From: Alkanindiges illinoisensis DSM 15370
GTDB lineage: Bacteria > Pseudomonadota > Gammaproteobacteria > Pseudomonadales > Moraxellaceae
Assembly: GCF_000619845.1 (NCBI RefSeq)
Contig: NZ_JHUX01000011.1
Location: 1-32,000, forward strand
Length of the DNA stretch: 32,000 nucleotides
Direction of reading: 5' to 3'
Shown: piece after piece, positions 11,039-32,000 of the stretch
Numbering within the stretch: position 1 is the first letter of the stretch
How the letters are laid out: the number at the start of each line of letters is the position of its first letter
Made by a program: the position numbers and the translations under genes
The notes under the pieces: generated by a model
The model's database searches: none
The model's input: only the letters and a program-made list of their open reading frames with translations
What the model was told of the DNA's origin: nothing

Positions 11039-11202
11039 CCGCAACAAATGAATTAACCCCGCGCGCTGGCATCTTGCCCTGTCTAAAGCACGCTGATGAT
11101 TGATTAAGTTTGACTAACCTGCTGGTGTACATAAGCAGTGCTGTGATTCGTTGTTTTTCGACGTTTTTTTTGAATTATTTTTAAAATTTTTTGCAGGATT
11201 TG

Positions 11203-11230
11203 CTTGAAATTCACCGATTCACACCGATAT
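11203..11230 (+). promoter_or_regulatory. Candidate sigma-32 promoter for dnaK
   Basis: CTTGAAA - 14 nt - CCGATAT, about 45 nt upstream of the dnaK ATG. Confidence 0.6.
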
Positions 11231-11276
11231 CGGATAACAAGCAGCCACTACTGCAAAATGATGAGGAGAGATACAC

Positions 11277-13235
11277 ATGGCCAAAATTATTGGCATTGAC
11301 TTAGGCACCACCAATTCCTGTGTTGCCGTACTGGAAGGCGACAAAGTAAAAGTAATCGACAATGCTGAAGGCGCACGTACCACGCCATCCATTATTGCTT
11401 ATAAAGATGGTGAAGTACTGGTTGGCCAGAGCGCCAAGCGTCAGGCTGTTACCAACCCAAAAAATACCCTGTTTGCCATCAAGCGTTTGATTGGCCGTCG
11501 CTACAGCGATGACGTGGTACAAAAAGACATCGCCATGGTGCCGTACAAAATTGTTCAGGCTGACAATGGCGATGCGTGGGTAAACGTCAACGACAAAAAA
11601 CTGGCACCGCAACAGGTTTCTGCTGAAATCCTGAAAAAAATGAAAAAAACCGCCGAAGATTACTTGGGCGAAACGGTGACTGAAGCGGTGATTACCGTGC
11701 CAGCGTACTTTAACGATGCGCAGCGTCAAGCCACCAAAGATGCTGGTAAAATTGCAGGTCTGGACGTTAAGCGCATTATTAACGAGCCAACTGCTGCTGC
11801 CCTTGCCTTTGGTATGGACAAAAAAGAAGGCGACCGCAAAATTGCCGTGTATGACCTTGGCGGCGGTACTTTCGACGTATCCATTATTGAAATTGCCGAT
11901 GTAGATGGCGAACAGCAGTTTGAAGTACTGTCCACCAATGGTGATACCTTTCTGGGCGGTGAAGACTTCGACCTGGCACTGATTGACTTTCTGGTTGAAG
12001 AATTCAAGAAAGAACAAAGCGTTAACCTGAAGAATGATCCATTGGCACTGCAACGCTTAAAAGAAGCTGCGGAAAAAGCCAAAATTGAGCTGTCTTCTGC
12101 AACGTCTACCGAAGTAAACCTGCCTTACATTACTGCGGATGCGACTGGGCCAAAACACCTGGTGGTGAACATTACCCGTAGCAAACTGGAAGCGCTGGTT
12201 GGCGATCTGGTTGCCCGCACCATGGAACCCTGCAAAATTGCACTGAAAGATGCAGGCTTATCTGCCTCTGATATTCAGGATGTCATTCTGGTGGGTGGTC
12301 AGACCCGTATGCCACTGGTACAGGCCAAAGTGCAGGAATTCTTTGGTAAAGAGCCACGTAAAGACGTGAACCCGGATGAAGCCGTTGCCGTAGGTGCAGC
12401 AATTCAGGGTGCGGTACTGGGCGGTGACAAGAAAGACGTACTACTGCTGGACGTAACGCCACTCACACTGGGTATTGAAACCATGGGCGGTGTACTGACA
12501 CCGATCATTGAGAAAAACAGCATGATTCCGACCAAGAAATCACAGGTTTTCTCAACAGCCGATGATAACCAGCCAGCAGTCACCATTCAGGTGTTCCAGG
12601 GTGAACGCAAAATGGCGGCGCAAAACAAATTGCTGGGTCGCTTTGACTTAAATGACATTCCACCAGCACCACGTGGCATGCCGCAAATTGAAGTGACTTT
12701 TGACATCAACGCCGATGGTATTTTAAACGTATCGGCCAAGGACAAAGGTACTGGCAAGGCGCAATCGATTCAGATTAAAGCCAACTCCGGTTTGTCTGAT
12801 GCTGAAATTGAACAAATGATCCGTGATGCCGAAGCCAATGCCGAAGAAGATAAAAAATTCGAGGACTTGGCCAAGGCACGCAACGAAGCAGATGGTCTGG
12901 TACACAGCACGCAAAAAGCCATCAAGGACTTGGGCGACAAAGCCACCGATGAAGAAAAAGCCTCTATTGATGCGGCAATTTCTGAACTGGAAGCTGCGAC
13001 CAAGGAAAATGATGTTGATGCCATCAAGGCCAAGATCGAAGCGCTGTCCAATGCTTCCCTGCCACTGATGCAGCGCGTTTACGAGCAGAACCAGGCCCAG
13101 GGTGGTGATGCGGGTGGTGCACAGGGTTTTGATCCAAACAGCTTTGGTCAGAATGCAGGTGCGCAACAGCAACAACCAGCCGATGATGGCGTGGTTGATG
13201 CCGAGTTTACCGAAGTGAAAGACGACAAAAAATAA
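11277..13235 (+). CDS. dnaK: Hsp70 chaperone DnaK
   Basis: 652 aa starting [18 protein letters not shown], with all Hsp70 signatures. Confidence 0.98.
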
Positions 13236-19392: not shown

Positions 19393-20219
19393 TTATTCTT
19401 GTGCGTGTAGTAACTGCGAAAATAACTGATTTAAGCGGGCAAGTGCGATAGGTTCCATATCCTGTGCCGGCATCACCTGCTGTAACCGCGCCAATTCGGC
19501 CTTAATCCATTGCTGTAACACGGGAATCGCTGGCTGTACTTCAGCCTCACCATGCTGGCGCTTTTGTACCAGTAAGGCATCAATCGCCTGTTGCACGGAA
19601 GTCTCATTTAATACCTGACGCAGCCGTTCAAACTCAATCGGTGCAACGCCGCCAAACTGTTCAATCCAGCGTACTGCCAGCAGCGGACGCAGTACATATA
19701 AGTATTTTTTCAGCCTGACCTGCTCTCCTTGCAAGAATTGTTGAAAATTGAAACTGGCAGTGCTGCGATAATGATAAAACCCACGTGCCTTATTGTAGTG
19801 CTGTGCAAGCAACTGTCGCGCCTGAACTGCATAACTACCCTGCTCACGATAAATAATGGGTGAATTTAACCATTCCACAATGGCCGGATTGCTTTTGGCT
19901 TGTAAGCGCAGTGCCTTACGCAAATCCCAACCATTGATATCGATTTCGTCAACAATAGGATATTCAATCACATCGCGGCGATCTTCCACATGAGCGATAT
20001 ATCGCGTAAGTCAAATACCAGTCCTGTGAGCAGAGATAAACAAAACGTACGTCCCTTTTACCAATAAAGTGTGCTATCAGGCGAATGAAAGCCTCAGGCA
20101 CGGCTACCTGATTCAATGGCATACAGAATTTTGACCTCATGTTTCTATTCAGCACGCAAAAGCCGCTGTTGAATTTCTTGATGCGCTGCTGCTGAGATGA
20201 CAGGATGAAAATCTGTCAT
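19393..20219 (-). pseudogene. Decayed nucleotidyltransferase gene (PF10127-like), with 2 in-frame stops and at least 2 frameshifts
   Basis: From the ATG at 20219 the minus strand reads MTDFHPVISAAAHQEIQQRLLRAE, TAG (20147-20145), KHEVKILYAIESGSRA, TGA (20096-20094) at the Trp of the GSRAWGF motif, then GFHSPDS. DVRFVY..QDWYL continues in a second frame. IAHVEDRRDVIEYPIVDEIDINGWDLRKAL... continues to 19393 in a third frame. Confidence 0.7.
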
Positions 20220-20242
20220 GTGTTATCCCAAACAATGATTAA

Positions 20243-20581
20243 AATAAATTCAAAATAAAATATTTAAATTTAAACCAGAACTTTTGAATTCAAATTTTTT
20301 ATACCCAGACATAATTTTTGAATTCAAAAATTTAAATTCATTTTGTGGCAGCAACTTTAAATTCAAATTTTATAGTTTTAAATTCATAATTCTTGGCTAA
20401 AAGCCGATTTTTTAGTAATGCCCATAGGCTCACAGTATAAAAAAATGAATTCAAAAGTTTAAATTTAAAACTTTGAATTCATTTCTAGTTCCCGCTTTTT
20501 AGCTAGTCAGACTTATCCACAATCTGTTAATTTTAACAGCTTTAGAATTTGAATTTGAAAATAAGGACTTTTAAATTCAAA
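20243..20581. repeat. Array of at least 12 copies of the AT-rich 12-mer TTTRAATTYAWA in a gene-free gap
   Basis: Copies start at 20243, 20263, 20283, 20317, 20331, 20356, 20377, 20444, 20458, 20472 and 20570, plus an inverted copy at 20548. Two are exact TTTGAATTCAAA palindromes (20283, 20317). Tandem 14-bp phasing occurs at 20317/20331 and 20444/20458/20472. Confidence 0.85.
20513..20521 (+). promoter_or_regulatory. Perfect consensus DnaA box TTATCCACA
   Basis: Exact 9/9 match read from the sequence. Sits 28 bp after the third tandem 14-mer and is followed by the palindrome CTGTTAATTTTAACAG (20524-20539). Confidence 0.6.
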
Positions 20582-20607
20582 TAAAACCATGAAAAATATT
20601 ACTGACT

Positions 20608-20616
20608 TGTGGATAA
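20608..20616 (-). promoter_or_regulatory. Perfect consensus DnaA box (TGTGGATAA on the + strand), inverted relative to the first
   Basis: Exact 9/9 match. Centre-to-centre distance to the first box is 95 bp. Lies 29 nt upstream of the GFA-family gene ATG. Confidence 0.6.
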
Positions 20617-20644
20617 CTACTGATAATTGATCTAAGAGGGCACT

Positions 20645-21040
20645 ATGTATTCTGGAACCTGTTTGTGCGGTAGTGTGGCATATCAGATTCATGGCGAAAT
20701 TGGTGAGGTGGTGATTTGCCATTGCCAGCGTTGCCGCAAAGCCAATGGCAGTGCTTATGCGGTGAATGCCCCCATTAAATGTGCAGATTTTGAGTTAGTC
20801 AAAGGCGAAACCAGCTTAAAGGAATTTTGTTCAAGCCCCGGTGTACACCGGGTGTTTTGTGGCAATTGCGGTGCGCCGATTTATAGCAAGCGCGACAATG
20901 ACCCAGTACATTATCGCTTGCGCTTGGGCACACTAGACACACCACTCACCCATGGCCCAAGTATGCATATTTTTGCCGCATCCAAAGCCGAATGGAATGT
21001 AGTTTGCGATGGCTTGCCACAATATGCAGAACGGCCTTAA
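20645..21040 (+). CDS. GFA-family (CENP-V / glutathione-dependent formaldehyde-activating fold) zinc protein
   Basis: 131 aa with CLCGSV...CHCQRCRKANGSAY...FCGNCGAPI cysteine motifs typical of GFA. RBS-like AAGAGGG upstream. Confidence 0.85.
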   Translation: MYSGTCLCGSVAYQIHGEIGEVVICHCQRCRKANGSAYAVNAPIKCADFELVKGETSLKEFCSSPGVHRVFCGNCGAPIYSKRDNDPVHYRLRLGTLDTPLTHGPSMHIFAASKAEWNVVCDGLPQYAERP

Positions 21041-21239: not shown

Positions 21240-22415
21240 TTAGACCTCATCTGCCAGTGGAATCACCATATCTGCTGTGAGTGCCAATGGTTCTGGCAAC
21301 AGAGTAGCAAGTTGCTGACACAACTGACTTAACTGGCGGCTGTCTACGGGCATCAGGGTGATATGACCCAGCTTGCGCCCGGCACGCTCGGTTTTGCCAT
21401 AGAGATGCAAATGCGCACCTTCCAGCGCCAGAATGTCGGTGCTGCTAGGATGCTGGCCAATAATATTAACCATCACGGTGGGCTTCACCAATGCCGTTGA
21501 ACCCAGCGGCAAGCCTGCAACCGCACGCATGTGGTTTTCAAACTGCGAACACACGGCACCTTCAATGCTCCAGTGCCCGGAATTATGCACCCGTGGTGCC
21601 ATTTCATTGGCAAACAGGCCCTGTTCAGTCACAAACAGTTCCAGCGTGAGCACGCCGACATAATTCAAATGATTCAGCAGGCGGGTAATATAATCAGTGG
21701 CAATCGGCTGCAAATCCTGACTGTGCGGCGCTGGCACAATCGAATGCGATAAAATGCCTTGATGGTGATGGTTTTCAGCCAGTGGCCAGGTGCGCACTTC
21801 ACCATCCTGCCCACGCACTGCAATAATCGACACTTCACGGCTAAAACGCACAAAGCTTTCGGCAATCAGTGGGGCAGCCTTGCCCAGCTCTGCCCAGGCC
21901 TGCTCAATTTGCATTGTTTCACGGATTACAAACTGGCCCTTACCGTCATAGCCACCAGTTGCGGTTTTTACCACCAAGGGCAAACCCTGTTGTGTGGCAG
22001 CGTGTTGCAGGTCGGCCAATGAATGGATGGCTGAATACGGTGCCACGGGAATGCCAAGCTGGTCAAACAGCGCCTTTTCTGACAACCGATGCTGGGCAAT
22101 GGCCAGAGCCTGTCGCGGTGGATACAGGGTTTTGTGCTGGGTTAGTGCATCGGCATCAGCCAGTGGCGTATTCTCAAACTCAAGGCTAAATACATCCGCA
22201 CTGTCCATAAAGGTTTGCAGGGCATTGGCTTGTGTGTTGTCAATTACCCGACCTAGCGCTGCTGACGGGCACTCGCTTCCAGCTTCATAAAAAGTACATT
22301 TTACCCCGAGCGGCAACGCAGCCTGTGCCAGCATTCGTCCCAACTGGCCGCCACCAAAAATACCCACTGTCTTGACCATCGGGGAGTTGCTGCCTAGATT
22401 TTTTATGGTTGCCAT
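21240..22415 (-). CDS. purK: N5-carboxyaminoimidazole ribonucleotide synthase
   Basis: ATP-grasp protein starting ..VGIFGGGQLGRMLA. Start placed at the ATG at 22415, 10 nt after the purE stop; the ORF track starts at 22505, inside purE. An alternative ATG is at 22379. Confidence 0.9.
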   Translation of the reverse strand: MATIKNLGSNSPMVKTVGIFGGGQLGRMLAQAALPLGVKCTFYEAGSECPSAALGRVIDNTQANALQTFMDSADVFSLEFENTPLADADALTQHKTLYPPRQALAIAQHRLSEKALFDQLGIPVAPYSAIHSLADLQHAATQQGLPLVVKTATGGYDGKGQFVIRETMQIEQAWAELGKAAPLIAESFVRFSREVSIIAVRGQDGEVRTWPLAENHHHQGILSHSIVPAPHSQDLQPIATDYITRLLNHLNYVGVLTLELFVTEQGLFANEMAPRVHNSGHWSIEGAVCSQFENHMRAVAGLPLGSTALVKPTVMVNIIGQHPSSTDILALEGAHLHLYGKTERAGRKLGHITLMPVDSRQLSQLCQQLATLLPEPLALTADMVIPLADEV

Positions 22416-22425
22416 GCTGTCAGCC

Positions 22426-22950
22426 TTATTGCGTTTGACCGGGAATATTGTTGCTGCTGACTTTCTCAGTTTGGGCCAGCCTGAACTGCTGTACCGCTTC
22501 AGCAATGGCCGGGTTGTTTAAGCCCAGAATCTGTGCGGCTAAAATGGCTGCATTGGTGGCACCAGCCTTGCCAATGGCCAGCGTTCCCACGGCAATGCCT
22601 GCCGGCATTTGTACAATAGACAATAGCGAATCCACGCCATTTAAAATGGATGACTGCACAGGCACGCCCAGCACTGGCAAATCGGTTTTGGCGGCACACA
22701 TGCCCGGTAAATGCGCTGCGCCACCTGCCCCGGCAATAATCACCTGAATGCCACGCGCACGTGCTGTTTCAGCATATTCAAACAAACGGTCCGGCGTACG
22801 GTGCGCGGACACCACTTCGGCTTCAAACGGCACATTGAGCTGCTTAAGCATGTTGGCAGTGTGTTCAAGCGTCGCCCAGTCAGACTGAGAGCCCATGATA
22901 ATTCCAACCAGCGGCGGGTTGGCAGGGTTAACGGACGAGTTCATAAGCAC
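22426..22950 (-). CDS. purE: N5-CAIR mutase (class I PurE)
   Basis: [11 protein letters not shown]...SAHRTPD...[14 protein letters not shown] motifs. Confidence 0.93.
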
Positions 22951-23886: not shown

Positions 23887-24273
23887 TCATTGTAACTTAA
23901 TAGGCATTTTTTCAACTTGAATGGCTTTTAGAAAAGTTTCTCCATCTTCTTTTAAAAAGGGGAAAATATAATCAACACATAATTTTTGACCCGGTTTTAA
24001 ATCTGTTTCGATATAACTTATTTTTTTATGAAATCGCCCATGAAACATGAATTCCAGATTTTTATTACTATAAGTTTTCATGTGAATATAAGTAGTAAAT
24101 TTAATATGTCCTTTAGATTCATCCCTGACTTCATATCTTTCAAAATAGCCACATTCATGCTTAGTTTCAGCATTATTTAATTGATATTTAGTGACTTGAT
24201 AAGTGATGAACTTCCATGTTCCTATCCCAACAATCATTACTATCAAAACAATACCTACAAATTTTTTATCCAT
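23887..24273 (-). CDS. Hypothetical N-terminally membrane-anchored protein on a low-GC islet
   Basis: 128-aa ORF with AAGGA 6 nt upstream of the ATG. One N-terminal TM helix (FVGIVLIVMIVGIGTW). A sampled line has 17 G+C of 60. No family recognised. Confidence 0.5.
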   Translation of the reverse strand: MDKKFVGIVLIVMIVGIGTWKFITYQVTKYQLNNAETKHECGYFERYEVRDESKGHIKFTTYIHMKTYSNKNLEFMFHGRFHKKISYIETDLKPGQKLCVDYIFPFLKEDGETFLKAIQVEKMPIKLQ

Positions 24274-24332
24274 AAAATATCCTTATTATTCAATTATTAA
24301 CTTTGAATTATATAGATTTAAACTAAATCTAA

Positions 24333-24692
24333 TTAAGCACTCATCAGCTGACTTCTAAACACAAAAAAAACTGCCCCTAACAAACATAAACCTGCCCACA
24401 GATAATCCAGCTTAAATGGCTGTTTAAACAGCCACAGCATAAACGGCACAAACACCAGCAGGGTAATCACTTCCTGCGTGATTTTCATTTGACCCAGGCT
24501 CCAGCCCTGTTCATTTAAAAACCGGTTGGCCGGCACCATAAAGGCATATTCCAGCAAGGCAATCAGCCAGCCGCACAGAATAGCCTGCCACATGGGCGCG
24601 TGATGTAAAAACTTCAGGTGACCATACCAGGCCAACGTCATAAAACAGTTGGACACCACCAGCAAACACAGCGGAAACCATAAATTTGTCAT
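24333..24692 (-). CDS. DUF486 / DMT-superfamily small membrane protein
   Basis: Start set at MTNLWFPLCLLVVSNCFMTLAWYGHLKF, which matches the usual DUF486 N-terminus; the ORF track starts at 24728. Confidence 0.75.
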   Translation of the reverse strand: MTNLWFPLCLLVVSNCFMTLAWYGHLKFLHHAPMWQAILCGWLIALLEYAFMVPANRFLNEQGWSLGQMKITQEVITLLVFVPFMLWLFKQPFKLDYLWAGLCLLGAVFFVFRSQLMSA

Positions 24693-28393: not shown

Positions 28394-28793
28394 TATTTCC
28401 ATGCGTTTAAAAGTCATGTAGGTCTGATCATTAAAGCTGCGAGAACCTGACTTTGATTTTCTCTACAAGTAATCAGGCTTGCATGACTAAAAGGCTTTAT
28501 TGAGCTTATAAATTTAAAGATTAAAGTCTTTATTGAAGTAAACCTATCTATTAATAAGGCGTTAAATTTTTATTTGCACGACTGGTTTTTGCAGCTCAGG
28601 TCTATTTAGTTCAATGATTGTTAACTTAATTTAATACACTGTTATTTAAAGCAGAAATTGTTATATAACGCTACATTAATTGCCAATTCTTCACCTAACC
28701 CCTTTAAAACGTGAGTTAAAATCTTACAAATTATTTATTTTCATGCCCTAGTCTTTAGTTTTACACGTGTATATAGCAAATAGAGGAAAGGTT

Positions 28794-29351
28794 ATGAAAA
28801 ATATTGCTACTGGAGCATTGCTGGGTGTACTGGTTGCCATGACTGGCTGTCAAAGCATGGATGGAATGCATGATGGTGACGGCATGCATATGATGAAAGC
28901 CAAAATGAGTGATGCTCAGATTTTATCCGTTCTGCATACAGCTAATATGGGCGAAATTTCCCAGGGTCAAATTGCATTACAAAAAGCCCAGCGTGCTGAT
29001 GTTAGAAACTTTGCCCAGCGCATGGTGAGTGAACATACTGACAATGACCAGAAAGGCAAAGCGCTGCTGACCAGTGCCAATATGGCACCACAGAACAATC
29101 ATTTGAGCATGAAGCTGCAAAAAGACAGTGACGACGTGGTGATGAAGCTAAACAAGGCAGACGCCAAGGACTTTGATAAAACCTATATGGAAAGTCAGGT
29201 AAAAGTGCATAAAATGGTTCTGGAAACCATCGATAAGAAACTGATTCCCAATGCACAGCATCCTGATCTGCGTAATCACCTGACCATGACCCGTGCTGCT
29301 GTTGCCATGCATTTGCAAATGGCTGAGCAACTCAGTGATTCGCTTAAATAA
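28794..29351 (+). CDS. DUF4142-family lipoprotein
   Basis: Lipobox VAMTGC. ..AN.GEI..G..A..KA....V..FA..MV.DH pattern typical of DUF4142. Start set at the ATG after AGAGGAAAGG; the ORF track starts at 28767. Confidence 0.78.
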   Translation: MKNIATGALLGVLVAMTGCQSMDGMHDGDGMHMMKAKMSDAQILSVLHTANMGEISQGQIALQKAQRADVRNFAQRMVSEHTDNDQKGKALLTSANMAPQNNHLSMKLQKDSDDVVMKLNKADAKDFDKTYMESQVKVHKMVLETIDKKLIPNAQHPDLRNHLTMTRAAVAMHLQMAEQLSDSLK

Positions 29352-29476: not shown

Positions 29477-30829
29477 TTATTTGCCAATACAAAAACTGCC
29501 AAAAATCTTGCCCAGCAAATCATCTGCACTAAATTCACCGGTAATCTCACTTAATGCATTTTGCGCCAGACGCAAAGATTCTGCCATCAGTTCCCCGGCG
29601 TGAAATTCAACCAGCTGAACACGAGCATCAGCCAGATGTTGCTGGCAGCGCACCATTGCGTCCAGATGCCGTGTCCGGGCAATAAAGGTACTTTCCTCGG
29701 GCTGATAGCCTGCATGCGCGCTAATCGCCTGTATGAGCGTATTAAGGCCATCACCTTGCCGTGCCGATAATATAATGCGCTTAAAGCCATTTAACTCATC
29801 CTGATGCGGGGTTTGTCCCGCCAGATCAGCCTTGTTGGCAATCAGCAATAATCGCTTAGGATCACGCTGGTGAAAAAATCCATCGGCCAGTGCCAGTGGA
29901 TCATTATCAGTGGTCAGGTCATAGACCAATAACAACAGGTCAGCCTGTTCAATTTCCCTATAAGCGCGCTTGATGCCTTCCTGCTCCACAATATCACCGG
30001 TTTCACGCAAGCCAGCAGTATCGGTCAGGGTAATGGGCAGGCCATTCAAGGTAATTCTTTCATGCAACACATCACGGGTGGTGCCGGCAATGTCGGTGAC
30101 AATAGCGCGATCAACCCCGGCCAAGGCATTCAGCAGGCTGGATTTTCCGGCATTGGGCTTGCCTGCAATCACCACCTGCAAGCCCTCACGCAATAACTGT
30201 CCCTGTTTGGCCGATTTTTGGACCTGGCTTACTGCCCCCTGTACTTGCTCCAGCAGGCTTAAAATCCGGCCATCCGCCAGAAAATCAATTTCCTCTTCGG
30301 GAAAATCAATGGCAGCTTCCACATGCAGGCGTAAATGAATGAGTTGCTCCAGAACTTCATTCACCCGCAGCGAAAAAGCACCTTGCAGGGAACGCACGGC
30401 CGAACGGGCAGCCGCTTCACTACTGGCATCAATCAGGTCACTAATGGCTTCTGCCTGCACCAGATCCATTTTGCCATTTTCAAAGGCACGCAGCGAAAAT
30501 TCACCTGCCTTGGCTGCCACAGCACCCAAACTCAATAAGCGCGCCAGTACCGCATTTTGCACCACCACCCCGCCATGTCCCTGTACTTCAACCACATCCT
30601 CACCAGTGAACGAATGGGGGGCTTTAAAGCACAGAATCAAGCCTTCATCAATCACCTCACCCTGTGCGTCCTTAAACTGGCGAAATCCGGCCATACGCGG
30701 TGCCGGCAGCGGCTTTGCTGTTAAAGCCTCAGCAATGGTAAAAGCATTGGGGCCTGACAGGCGGATAACACCAACACCGCCGCGTCCCTGAGGCGTGGCA
30801 ATTGCAGTAATCGTGGTGGTTAGCGTCAT
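29477..30829 (-). CDS. mnmE: tRNA modification GTPase MnmE
   Basis: 450 aa. N-terminal TIxAIATP.GRGGVGVIRLSG, G-domain GKPNAGKSSLLN and C-terminal CIGK. Confidence 0.95.
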   Translation of the reverse strand: MTLTTTITAIATPQGRGGVGVIRLSGPNAFTIAEALTAKPLPAPRMAGFRQFKDAQGEVIDEGLILCFKAPHSFTGEDVVEVQGHGGVVVQNAVLARLLSLGAVAAKAGEFSLRAFENGKMDLVQAEAISDLIDASSEAAARSAVRSLQGAFSLRVNEVLEQLIHLRLHVEAAIDFPEEEIDFLADGRILSLLEQVQGAVSQVQKSAKQGQLLREGLQVVIAGKPNAGKSSLLNALAGVDRAIVTDIAGTTRDVLHERITLNGLPITLTDTAGLRETGDIVEQEGIKRAYREIEQADLLLLVYDLTTDNDPLALADGFFHQRDPKRLLLIANKADLAGQTPHQDELNGFKRIILSARQGDGLNTLIQAISAHAGYQPEESTFIARTRHLDAMVRCQQHLADARVQLVEFHAGELMAESLRLAQNALSEITGEFSADDLLGKIFGSFCIGK

Positions 30830-30875
30830 AATCGCACCTCAGGTAAACAGGCGAATAAATGGTTTAACAGCTGGC

Positions 30876-30916
30876 ATAAAAAAACCGCCCAAGCGTATCA
30901 CTTCAGGCGGTTTTTA
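30876..30916 (-). terminator. Intrinsic terminator between yidC and mnmE, hairpin flanked by A and T runs
   Basis: AAAAAAACCGCC - loop - GGCGGTTTTT. On the minus strand the stem is followed by a T-run, 18 nt after the yidC stop. Confidence 0.7.
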
Positions 30917-30933
30917 AAAACACATAGCAGCAT

Positions 30934-32000
30934 TTAGCTGGTGGCTTTGGCTGCTGCTTCCCTGGCAATCGAACGATTAACCAGCCACTGCTGAAGAATG
31001 GTCAGCAGGTTATTGCAAATCCAGTACAGTACCAGTCCTGACGGGAAAAACAGCAGGAACACGGTAAAGATAATGGGCATAAGCTTGAACACCTTGGCCT
31101 GCATCGGATCAGTCGGCTGCGGGTTGAGCATTTGCTGCACATACATGGTAACACCCATGATCAGCGGCAAAATGAACAGCGGGTCCATGGCAGACAAATC
31201 CTGAATCCAGCCCAGCCACGGGGCATGACGCAGTTCCACGCTTTCCATCAGCACCCAGTACAGCGCCAGGAAAATCGGCATTTGTAGCAATAAAGGCAAG
31301 CAACCGGACAATGGATTAACCTGCTCTTTTTTGTACAGTGCCATCATTTCCTGCGAAAACTTCATGCGGTCTTCGCCATGCTCTTCTTTTAAGCGCTGCA
31401 TTTCCGGTGCAATCACCCGCATTTTGGCCATGGAGCGGTAACTTTTGGCTGATAGCGGAAACAGTACCAGTTTAACGGCACAGGTTAGCAGGATAATGGC
31501 CCAACCCCAGTTGCCTACAATACTGTAGAAGAATTTCAGTCCCATAAACAGGATCTGGGCAATGGGCCACAACCAGCCATAATCCACTGTCTGATTCAGA
31601 CCTGGTGCCAAATCCTTGAGCTTGGCTTGTACCTTGGGACCGGTATACAGCGTGGCACTAACGTCCATTTGCTTGCCAGCCGGAACATTAATCAGCGGGG
31701 TACGGAAACCAATCACATTGTCATTGCCAACCTTGCGTGATTCCAGCGTGGCATTGTACTTGGCATCTGGAATCCAGGCAGTGACAAAGTAATGCTGAAC
31801 CACGCCAACCCAACCGCCTTTGGCCTGCTGGCTTAAGCCATCACTCTGGAAGTCATCAAACTTGAGCTTGTTATACTGCTCGTCTGGCGTTCCCCACGCA
31901 CCACCCAGATAAGTTCCCAGCTGGAAAATACCCTGATGGCTCTTGCTGGGATCAGCACTGCTGTCACGCTTGATCTGGCCAAACATCTGGCCCTGCCATG
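30934..32000 (-). CDS. yidC: Membrane protein insertase YidC, C-terminal about 355 aa (5' end is beyond the window)
   Basis: Conserved YidC core (DYGWLWPIAQ.LF..L, GNWGWAIILLT, KSYRSMAKMR...P....LKE..G.D, NPLSGCLP.L.QMPIF.ALY). The frame stays open to the window edge. Confidence 0.93.
   Translation of the reverse strand, partial: WQGQMFGQIKRDSSADPSKSHQGIFQLGTYLGGAWGTPDEQYNKLKFDDFQSDGLSQQAKGGWVGVVQHYFVTAWIPDAKYNATLESRKVGNDNVIGFRTPLINVPAGKQMDVSATLYTGPKVQAKLKDLAPGLNQTVDYGWLWPIAQILFMGLKFFYSIVGNWGWAIILLTCAVKLVLFPLSAKSYRSMAKMRVIAPEMQRLKEEHGEDRMKFSQEMMALYKKEQVNPLSGCLPLLLQMPIFLALYWVLMESVELRHAPWLGWIQDLSAMDPLFILPLIMGVTMYVQQMLNPQPTDPMQAKVFKLMPIIFTVFLLFFPSGLVLYWICNNLLTILQQWLVNRSIAREAAAKATS

Follow-up and report, generated by a model that had tools for sequence, protein, structure and literature searches.

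The orphan N6-methyladenine (m6A) methyltransferase AamA (A1S_0222) of Acinetobacter baumannii ATCC 17978 modifies the 12-mer TTTRAATTYAAA in vivo, a target that was found by single-molecule real-time (SMRT) sequencing of the wild type and of a delta-aamA mutant, which loses the signal (Yang et al. 2023, PMC10483419). The A. baumannii chromosome carries 66 instances of the motif subtypes (counted per strand) in 12 regions, and the densest hot spot, Region 1 (223571-224183), holds 29 methylated adenines and adjoins 'mltA', a lytic murein transglycosylase gene; in the first sequencing run Region 1 supplied 29 of the 59 methylated adenines detected, and Region 2, upstream of dnaA and rnpA and 19.4 kb from Region 1, supplied 9 (PMC10483419). 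Region 1 was treated in that study as a transcriptional hot spot, with transcriptional switching favoured by the authors, and neither the study nor a 2026 review ties it to DnaA boxes or to an origin. Here we analyze a 32,000-nucleotide stretch of the Alkanindiges illinoisensis DSM 15370 genome (contig NZ_JHUX01000011.1, positions 1 to 32,000; hereafter the window), in which a gap between genes is occupied by an array of AT-rich 12-mers. Our comparisons identify this array as a conserved, discrete cis-element of the Acinetobacter-Alkanindiges clade, located 13-19 kb from the dnaA-rpmH origin, and its function is probably replication-cycle control, not that of an unassigned operator.

An earlier reading of the letters of this stretch (the original prediction) had found the motif impossible to assign. 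It agrees, however, letter for letter with the published AamA consensus (PMC10483419): six exact TTTRAATTYAAA sites lie in the gap, where motif I of that study, 100% methylated in A. baumannii, is also represented. Other Acinetobacter methylomes list TTTRAATTNA, TNTNAATTNAAA, WTRAATTYA and WTTTRAATTYAAAW (PMC10287943, PMC5270691, PMC13227989). Moreover, the site spacings of Region 1 (66, 39, 25, 37, 25, 20, 140, 25, 37, 36, 36, 37, 25, 63; PMC10483419) match the reversed array spacings of two Acinetobacter loci in our set (L013 and L014), indicating that Region 1 and these arrays are the same locus. With its motif (TTTRAATTYAAA/TNTNAATTNAAA/WTRAATTYA), its position between purK and the gene of the SLT_2-family transglycosylase and, in close relatives, its spacing fingerprint, the window array is identified as the ortholog of Region 1, and its 12-mers as predicted AamA-type targets. 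The two loci also share embedded DnaA boxes and a similar distance from dnaA (19.4 kb in A. baumannii, ~13 kb here); they differ in that the Alkanindiges array has 11 cores against ~15 and carries GFA and RlaP inserts at its borders. No methylase gene was found within the window. The motif and the A. baumannii hot spot were thus already known, and the window adds a further such locus in another genus. PMC10483419 describes Region 1 only as a hot spot near 'mltA', without DnaA boxes, origin proximity or conservation; in the literature within our reach we did not find these three features, nor the concentration of orphan-methylase sites at the origin and the array.

The palindromic half-sites had been taken to indicate a dimeric DNA-binding protein other than Fur, ArgR, CRP, LexA, PurR or IHF. 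That the array is a palindromic protein-recognition platform and not an operator of this list holds (ArgR, PurR and other operators were rejected by inspection for wrong half-site spacing), as does the palindromic nature of the single sites; because the 12-mer is the AamA consensus, however, the known recogniser is a DNA methyltransferase, and a separate dimeric reader is a possibility in addition to it.

The gap is free of genes, with no credible open reading frame (ORF) in its 425 bp, and it contains seven exact matches to TTTRAATTYAWA, five near-variant 12-mers and 11 TRAATTYA 8-bp cores. In 2000 dinucleotide-preserving shuffles of the gap's own sequence the 12-mer occurred 0.034 times on average (maximum 1) and the core 0.36 times (maximum 3), so AT-richness does not account for the array; elsewhere in the window, three further AT-rich islands (~2400-2800, 24000-24400 and 28400-28800) carry 0-1 sites each. 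The motif array is therefore real and non-random, and the composition effect that the original prediction had named as its own refutation is ruled out. All the copies it listed were located, seven of them exact (including 20377) and five as near-variants (20243, 20331, 20444, 20472 and 20548), and the core start-to-start distances (20, 20, 34, 14, 25, 21, 67, 14, 14 and 98) bear out the 14-bp pair (20317/20331), the 14-bp triple (20444/20458/20472) and the spacings of about 20-25 bp. One label has to be dropped: the supposed inverted copy at 20548 reads TTTGAATTTGAA, lacks the 8-bp core and is not supported as inverted by its sequence; at the orthologous position four Alkanindiges-type loci (L001-L004) read TTTGAATTTAAA. 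The triple forms a 42-bp inverted repeat that is 90% complementary, with a predicted single-strand fold of -12.1 kcal/mol (z = -5.9), far better than shuffled sequences. Scans of the window against Rfam and for tRNAs gave no match.

We next counted motifs in 80 purK-anchored loci. An array lies just downstream of purK in all Alkanindiges-type loci (L001-L006) and in Acinetobacter (L007-L025 and L036), with 9-17 cores each, and the order purK, array, SLT_2 gene recurs in 28 genomes; in Acinetobacter and in one Alkanindiges-type metagenome-assembled genome nothing but the array separates the purK terminator from the transglycosylase gene. In the same survey the array is absent from Moraxella, Psychrobacter, Aquirhabdus, Agitococcus and Fluviicoccus, where purK is not beside the transglycosylase gene and has no DnaA boxes. 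Alignment of the orthologous intergenic regions, a check suggested together with the original prediction, revealed that single sites are positionally orthologous between loci and kept across two genera. The Alkanindiges layout is likewise kept, in the order of several sites, the palindromic triple, a DnaA box, two sites and an inverted DnaA box. Mean identity to the reference was 0.87 in the Alkanindiges set and 0.91 in the A. calcoaceticus-baumannii set for methylation-site columns, and 0.78 and 0.96, respectively, for DnaA-box columns, compared with 0.57 and 0.59 for spacer columns, a pattern that points to purifying selection on the sites and DnaA boxes relative to the spacers.

Across 464 kb of Acinetobacter loci, 246 copies of the 12-mer fall inside arrays and a single one outside, where 2.3 were expected, and 785 kb from other Moraxellaceae genera contain none. 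A decayed small repeat element, another of the roles first proposed, does not fit a motif that is not dispersed and whose sites are kept while the spacers drift. For the same kind of reason we rejected a dispersed repetitive extragenic palindrome or miniature inverted-repeat transposable element (REP/MITE), since the window holds one stray near-match in 32 kb and, over ~1.3 Mb, copies outside arrays are no more frequent than chance predicts. When metagenomes were scanned for three close-set sites, at least ~45 further arrays (33-47% GC) came up, and among the matches listed the identifiable flanks were always PurK and SLT_2.

Several observations from these scans stand apart from the array itself. 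Short arrays of 3-7 cores (~11100-11700) are found in the reduced-genome nectar species A. nectaris, A. pollinis and A. boissieri (L028, L030 and L031); a perfect DnaA box remains in A. pollinis and A. boissieri, and only a one-mismatch box in A. nectaris. The non-Acinetobacter metagenome matches listed were set aside as satellite-like repeats (L144, L156 and L250) or unrelated ~30-bp tandem repeats (L140, L200 and L228); the latter, in an unrelated organism of ~45% GC, each end in ATTTGAATTTAAA, separate a small regulator-like ORF from the following gene (L140 2880-3010, L228 1250-1410, L200 760-1010) and seem to be a different family with the same 12-mer. A scan of viral contigs for paired sites returned chance pairs in very AT-rich viruses and unrelated (AAATTT)n tandem or palindromic repeats, which we discarded. 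One of these contigs (L114, 3930-4270) contains a long perfect palindrome of (AAATTT)n-like units with mirror-image ORFs at both sides, probably a hairpin end or an assembly artefact.

The two features that say most about function, a pair of perfect DnaA boxes and an origin-adjacent position, are missing from the original prediction. The two boxes of the array are inverted relative to each other and are the sole perfect DnaA boxes in the 32-kb window. Over 30 Acinetobacter and Alkanindiges loci we counted 67 perfect boxes in 20.9 kb of arrays (Markov expectation 0.22) and 13 in 586 kb of flanks, a 145-fold difference in density, with 1-4 boxes per array in the relatives. The DnaA boxes belong to the array element.

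In some Acinetobacter-like metagenome contigs with AdeT genes (L233 2500-2760, L153 1440-1700, L237 ~1000-1300) we saw a third small cluster, of four AamA-type sites and two inverted perfect DnaA boxes; an ABC-F ATPase gene borders it on one side and the 3' end of gyrB on the other. This cluster and the purK array are on different sides of oriC.

The position of the array relative to the origin follows from the gene map. The window ends in mnmE and yidC, and in three Alkanindiges-type genomes, whose loci we fetched through MnmE homologs, yidC is followed by yidD-rnpA-rpmH, a spacer of ~820 bp and dnaA-dnaN-recF-gyrB, which places the array ~13 kb from the dnaA-rpmH spacer and to its left. In five genomes this spacer carries 5-6 perfect and ~5 one-mismatch DnaA boxes and a kept module, 'TTTCCACAGAAAA...CC-TAATAATAATAA', made of a DnaA box, a GC cluster and a (TAA)4 DnaA-trio. 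Directly after the trio comes an AT-rich stretch with 2-3 AamA 12-mers, and methylation sites therefore occupy the presumed unwinding region. The gammaBOriS origin motif TAAATTTAAATTTA, which is specific to Acinetobacter and was obtained from DoriC origins (PMC7174414), is found in this spacer but has no match in the purK arrays. Taken together, the spacer between dnaA and rpmH in Alkanindiges and Acinetobacter has the appearance of a complete origin, an assignment that we base on sequence features and skew; in the literature we found no experimentally mapped Acinetobacter oriC, no marker-frequency data and nothing that connects AamA with the origin.

Raw GC skew around the array was indecisive, and we therefore split the skew at third codon positions (GC3) into a coding-strand and a replication component. 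Between spacer and array the replication component ranged from +0.075 to +0.175 in all five loci (5/5), with bootstrap intervals above zero, and in the window it was negative (plus strand) to the left as well as to the right of the array, with no switch in strand composition there. Forks thus enter the array from the direction of dnaA and pass through it, on the replichore leading from rpmH through purK to the transglycosylase gene, and the array is accordingly not the origin. AamA sites and DnaA boxes occur together at three loci of the origin region, the array, the dnaA-rpmH spacer and the gyrB cluster; with the same sites beside the trio and the gyrB cluster on the other side, the array is origin-linked.

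How does this arrangement compare with characterized replication-control loci? Like the GATC clusters at oriC and the dnaA promoter of E. coli, which are served by Dam and SeqA, the array combines dense sites of an orphan adenine methylase, mostly 14-37 bp apart, with DnaA boxes at or near the origin, and in both systems loss of the methylase has a mild phenotype that includes altered dnaA expression. The likeness is functional only: AamA is a different methylase whose 12-bp site occurs as ~33 palindromes per genome, as opposed to ~19,000 for the 4-bp GATC, the gap contains one GATC (20627-20630), and the array is a locus separate from the origin and the dnaA promoter. To our knowledge the Acinetobacter-Alkanindiges clade is without Dam and SeqA, and we know of no SeqA homolog in it. 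With E. coli datA and DARS1/2 and the DnaA-box clusters of B. subtilis, the array shares a conserved, non-coding cluster of high-affinity boxes outside oriC, near the origin in the B. subtilis case, and titration of DnaA or a change of its nucleotide state would be plausible for the array as well. Three or more functional boxes characterize the datA/DARS class; the boxes of the array are few, with two perfect ones by sequence here and 1-4 in relatives (145-fold enriched over flanks); datA and DARS2 have an IHF site, while the arrays lack a strict IHF consensus; and in none of these clusters are the boxes embedded in an array of methylation sites. The origin of V. cholerae chromosome 2 likewise has repeated 12-mers with an adenine-methylation site by a DnaA box in a replication-control region. 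Its RctB-bound 11/12-mers contain GATC, and methylation is needed for binding. They are, however, oriented direct repeats that form an origin with the RctB initiator encoded alongside, whereas the array sites are palindromic, adjoin no initiator gene and are passed by forks.

We therefore propose, with a probability of roughly 45%, that the array serves as a DnaA-box cluster close to the origin, that methylation sets its state, and that it would act after initiation. In resting DNA, all array sites would be fully methylated. A fork from oriC would arrive within tens of seconds of initiation and leave at least 11 close-set sites hemimethylated together, which would shift the occupancy of the locus, by DnaA on the embedded boxes, by a putative reader of hemimethylated sites, or by both. 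The locus would then titrate, inactivate or sequester the initiator after firing until AamA re-methylates the sites. More than half of the ~33 AamA sites are located at oriC and the array, and one may go further and see in AamA and its genomic sites a dedicated replication-cycle methylation system, in which fork-driven hemimethylation blocks re-initiation via a reader or DnaA; we regard this extension as doubtful. A delta-aamA mutant of A. baumannii grows more slowly, and its dnaA and rnpA transcripts rise 1.5- to 2.4-fold, compared with a change of only 1.6-fold for 'mltA' (PMC10483419), which is weakly consistent with a replication role.

Should the proposal be correct, the locus would be functionally analogous to the Dam/SeqA GATC clusters together with datA or DnaA-box clusters, but with another methylase and a 12-bp site; on the extended reading, E. 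coli sequestration plus datA would have a convergent equivalent here that is assembled from unrelated components. It unites the top local density of sites of a few-site orphan methylase with high-affinity DnaA boxes 13-19 kb from the origin. The prevention of re-initiation in gammaproteobacteria that lack Dam and SeqA, Acinetobacter included, is largely unknown, and the array offers a small, deletable target. Re-read in this light, the published AamA methylome has most of its sites at the origin and the array and not at resistance-gene promoters, and the pleiotropic phenotypes of delta-aamA may for this reason be secondary to disturbed control of replication or dnaA. In draft genomes of the clade, the 12-mer array with its flanking DnaA boxes is also a good annotation marker of the origin-proximal region.

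Several observations weigh against a post-initiation role. We know of no protein in this SeqA-less clade that reads hemimethylated sites, and we found no experiment in the literature that ties Region 1 to replication. The window array has two perfect DnaA boxes only, and the strict IHF consensus WATCAANNNNTTR is found in 0/18 aligned arrays, while E. coli datA has an IHF site. Helical phasing of the sites is weak (R = 0.17 at a 10.5-bp period), a poor fit to SeqA-type binding on one face. Since aamA is dispensable in A. baumannii, any role in replication would be modulatory. Finally, in most genomes the array immediately precedes the transglycosylase gene, which brings a transcriptional role into consideration.

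The array could indeed be a methylation-sensitive promoter or an unusually elaborate epigenetic operator of the adjacent genes (mostly SLT_2; GFA and the RlaP remnant here), with DnaA acting as a transcription factor that couples wall remodelling to the cell cycle. In E. coli, DnaA is known to regulate transcription, and in Acinetobacter and L002 the arrays fill the entire region upstream of the transglycosylase gene. The authors' preference for transcriptional switching points the same way, and 'mltA' is up 1.6-fold in delta-aamA and restored by complementation (PMC10483419). A 1.6-fold effect is small, however, for 15 sites and 2-4 DnaA boxes, and the boxes lie at the purK end, distant from the transglycosylase start. 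The array is complete in the window, L001 and L003, although there an RlaP gene intervenes before the transglycosylase gene; promoter-like matches in the gap are at chance level (4, with 2.7 +/- 1.5 expected), and the pairing of sites and DnaA boxes also occurs at oriC and downstream of gyrB, next to other genes. We consider this alternative plausible, though rather unlikely. Transcription termination signals in the gap amount to one weak hairpin in our scan.

A platform for a dedicated TTTRAATTYAAA-binding protein, such as an iteron-like, nucleoid-associated or segregation factor, with AamA methylation incidental or tuning as in the case of V. cholerae RctB, would account for the conserved TTT/AAA flanks beyond the RAATTY core, for a 12-bp site that is unusual for a type II-like methylase, for the preferred spacings of 14, 20-21, 25-26 and 35-37 bp, for the 42-bp palindrome formed by three sites, and for the drift of spacers between kept sites. 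Methylation of exactly these 12-mers depends on AamA, however, so the methylase alone can explain the extended specificity, and none of the genomes examined has a candidate protein gene beside the array. The genes next to the array are RlaP, GFA and purK, without rep or par in the vicinity, and blastn of the gap against plasmid and phage collections gave no match. Such a platform is possible but distinctly unlikely. The same observations speak against a plasmid-type iteron origin, whose 17-22-bp direct repeats by a rep gene differ from 12-mer palindromes, and against the iteron or unwinding element of the original prediction: there is no rep gene, the palindromes are not oriented direct repeats, a DnaA-trio is lacking and forks cross the array.

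Very improbable, in our view, is that the array itself is an origin, be it the actual site of unwinding or an additional or backup oriC, even though its 24.5% GC, its perfect DnaA boxes amid a dense cluster of methylation sites reminiscent of the GATC sites of E. coli oriC, and its 13-19 kb from dnaA (E. coli oriC is 42 kb from dnaA) would suit an origin. The dnaA-rpmH spacer has at least 10 boxes, the trio and the unwinding module, as well as the TAAATTTAAATTTA motif that the arrays lack, compared with 1-4 boxes (two perfect ones here) and no trio in the array, and the GC3 skew indicates forks that cross from the dnaA side. That the array has no specific function, being a composition effect or small-repeat remnant, can be dismissed as next to inconceivable: the region is very AT-rich and the motif consists of A/T except at its R/Y positions, but the shuffles yield 0.03 sites against 7 observed, the motif is missing from the window's other AT-rich islands and not dispersed in ~1.3 Mb of related loci, and single sites are positionally kept across two genera.

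Table. Coordinates of the array, its flanking genes and the dnaA-rpmH spacers (window coordinates except in the last five rows; L001-L003 and L005 are Alkanindiges-type loci)
Feature	Position	Strand	Remarks
SLT_2 lytic murein transglycosylase gene ('mltA' in PMC10483419)	17770..19173	-	conserved distal anchor
Decayed RlaP-family (PF10127) nucleotidyltransferase gene	19393..20219	-	ATG at 20217-20219; lineage-specific insert between array and transglycosylase gene
Whole element: non-coding gap with site array and two DnaA boxes	20220..20644	strandless	425 bp, 24.5% GC
Variant site AATAAATTCAAA	20243..20254		core TAAATTCA at 20245-20252; position kept in L001 and L003
AamA-type palindromic site TTTAAATTTAAA	20263..20274		motif I of PMC10483419; exact TTTRAATTYAWA match
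AamA-type palindromic site TTTGAATTCAAA	20283..20294		exact TTTRAATTYAWA match
14-bp-spaced tandem pair, TTTGAATTCAAA then TTTAAATTCATT (20331)	20317..20342		exact TTTRAATTYAWA match at 20317; pair kept in L001-L003
AamA-type site TTTAAATTCAAA	20356..20367		motif III/IV of PMC10483419; exact TTTRAATTYAWA match
Site TTTAAATTCATA	20377..20388		exact TTTRAATTYAWA match
GC stem-loop (TTGGCTAAAAGCCGA) followed by a T run, terminator-like	20393..20417	+	mid-array; sequence TTGGCTAAAAGCCGATTTTTT; partly kept in L001-L003
Near-perfect 42-bp palindrome of three sites at 14-bp spacing (20444, 20458, 20472)	20443..20484		near-variants AATGAATTCAAA at 20444 and TTTGAATTCATT at 20472; exact TTTRAATTYAWA match at 20458; kept in L001-L003
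Perfect DnaA box TTATCCACA	20513..20521	+	kept in 6/6 Alkanindiges-type loci
Degenerate site TTTGAATTTGAA	20548..20559		weakest copy, without 8-bp core
AamA-type site TTTAAATTCAAA	20570..20581		between both DnaA boxes; exact TTTRAATTYAWA match
Perfect DnaA box (TGTGGATAA on + strand)	20608..20616	-	inverted relative to the first; kept in L001-L003, one mismatch in L005
GFA-family gene	20645..21040	+	lineage-specific insert between array and purK
purK-purE	21240..22950	-	conserved origin-proximal anchor
mnmE and 3' part of yidC	29477..32000	-	end of rpmH-rnpA-yidD-yidC-mnmE operon
dnaA-rpmH spacer, L081	6430-7254		
dnaA-rpmH spacer, L082	6457-7278		
dnaA-rpmH spacer, L083	6389-7225		
dnaA-rpmH spacer, L085	6573-7245		
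dnaA-rpmH spacer, L086	6617-7261		

From left to right, the window reads SLT_2 (-), RlaP pseudogene (-), array, GFA (+), purK-purE (-), several genes and, at its right end, mnmE/yidC (-). The PurK encoded here shares 96% identity with the protein of A. illinoisensis. The RlaP-family gene is interrupted by an in-frame stop after codon 24 and by additional stops, shows indels when compared with L001, and is absent at this place in L002 and Acinetobacter, where the array abuts the SLT_2 gene directly. The GFA gene is a pseudogene in L002 and absent in Acinetobacter, and an exact-protein look-up returned no identical entry for its product. Both insertions, one on either border, left the array intact.

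Elsewhere in the window, the sole motif-like match is an isolated near-site, TATAAATTTAAA (28507-28518), in the AT-rich spacer upstream of a DUF4142 gene; it is the one further TTTRAATTYAWA match outside the gap. Two of the AT-rich islands (~2400-2800 and ~24000-24400) have 27-30% GC compared with ~49% for the rest of the window, and each contains one ORF without a Pfam match (2147-2887 and 23887-24273, both on the minus strand), which may be recently acquired genes.

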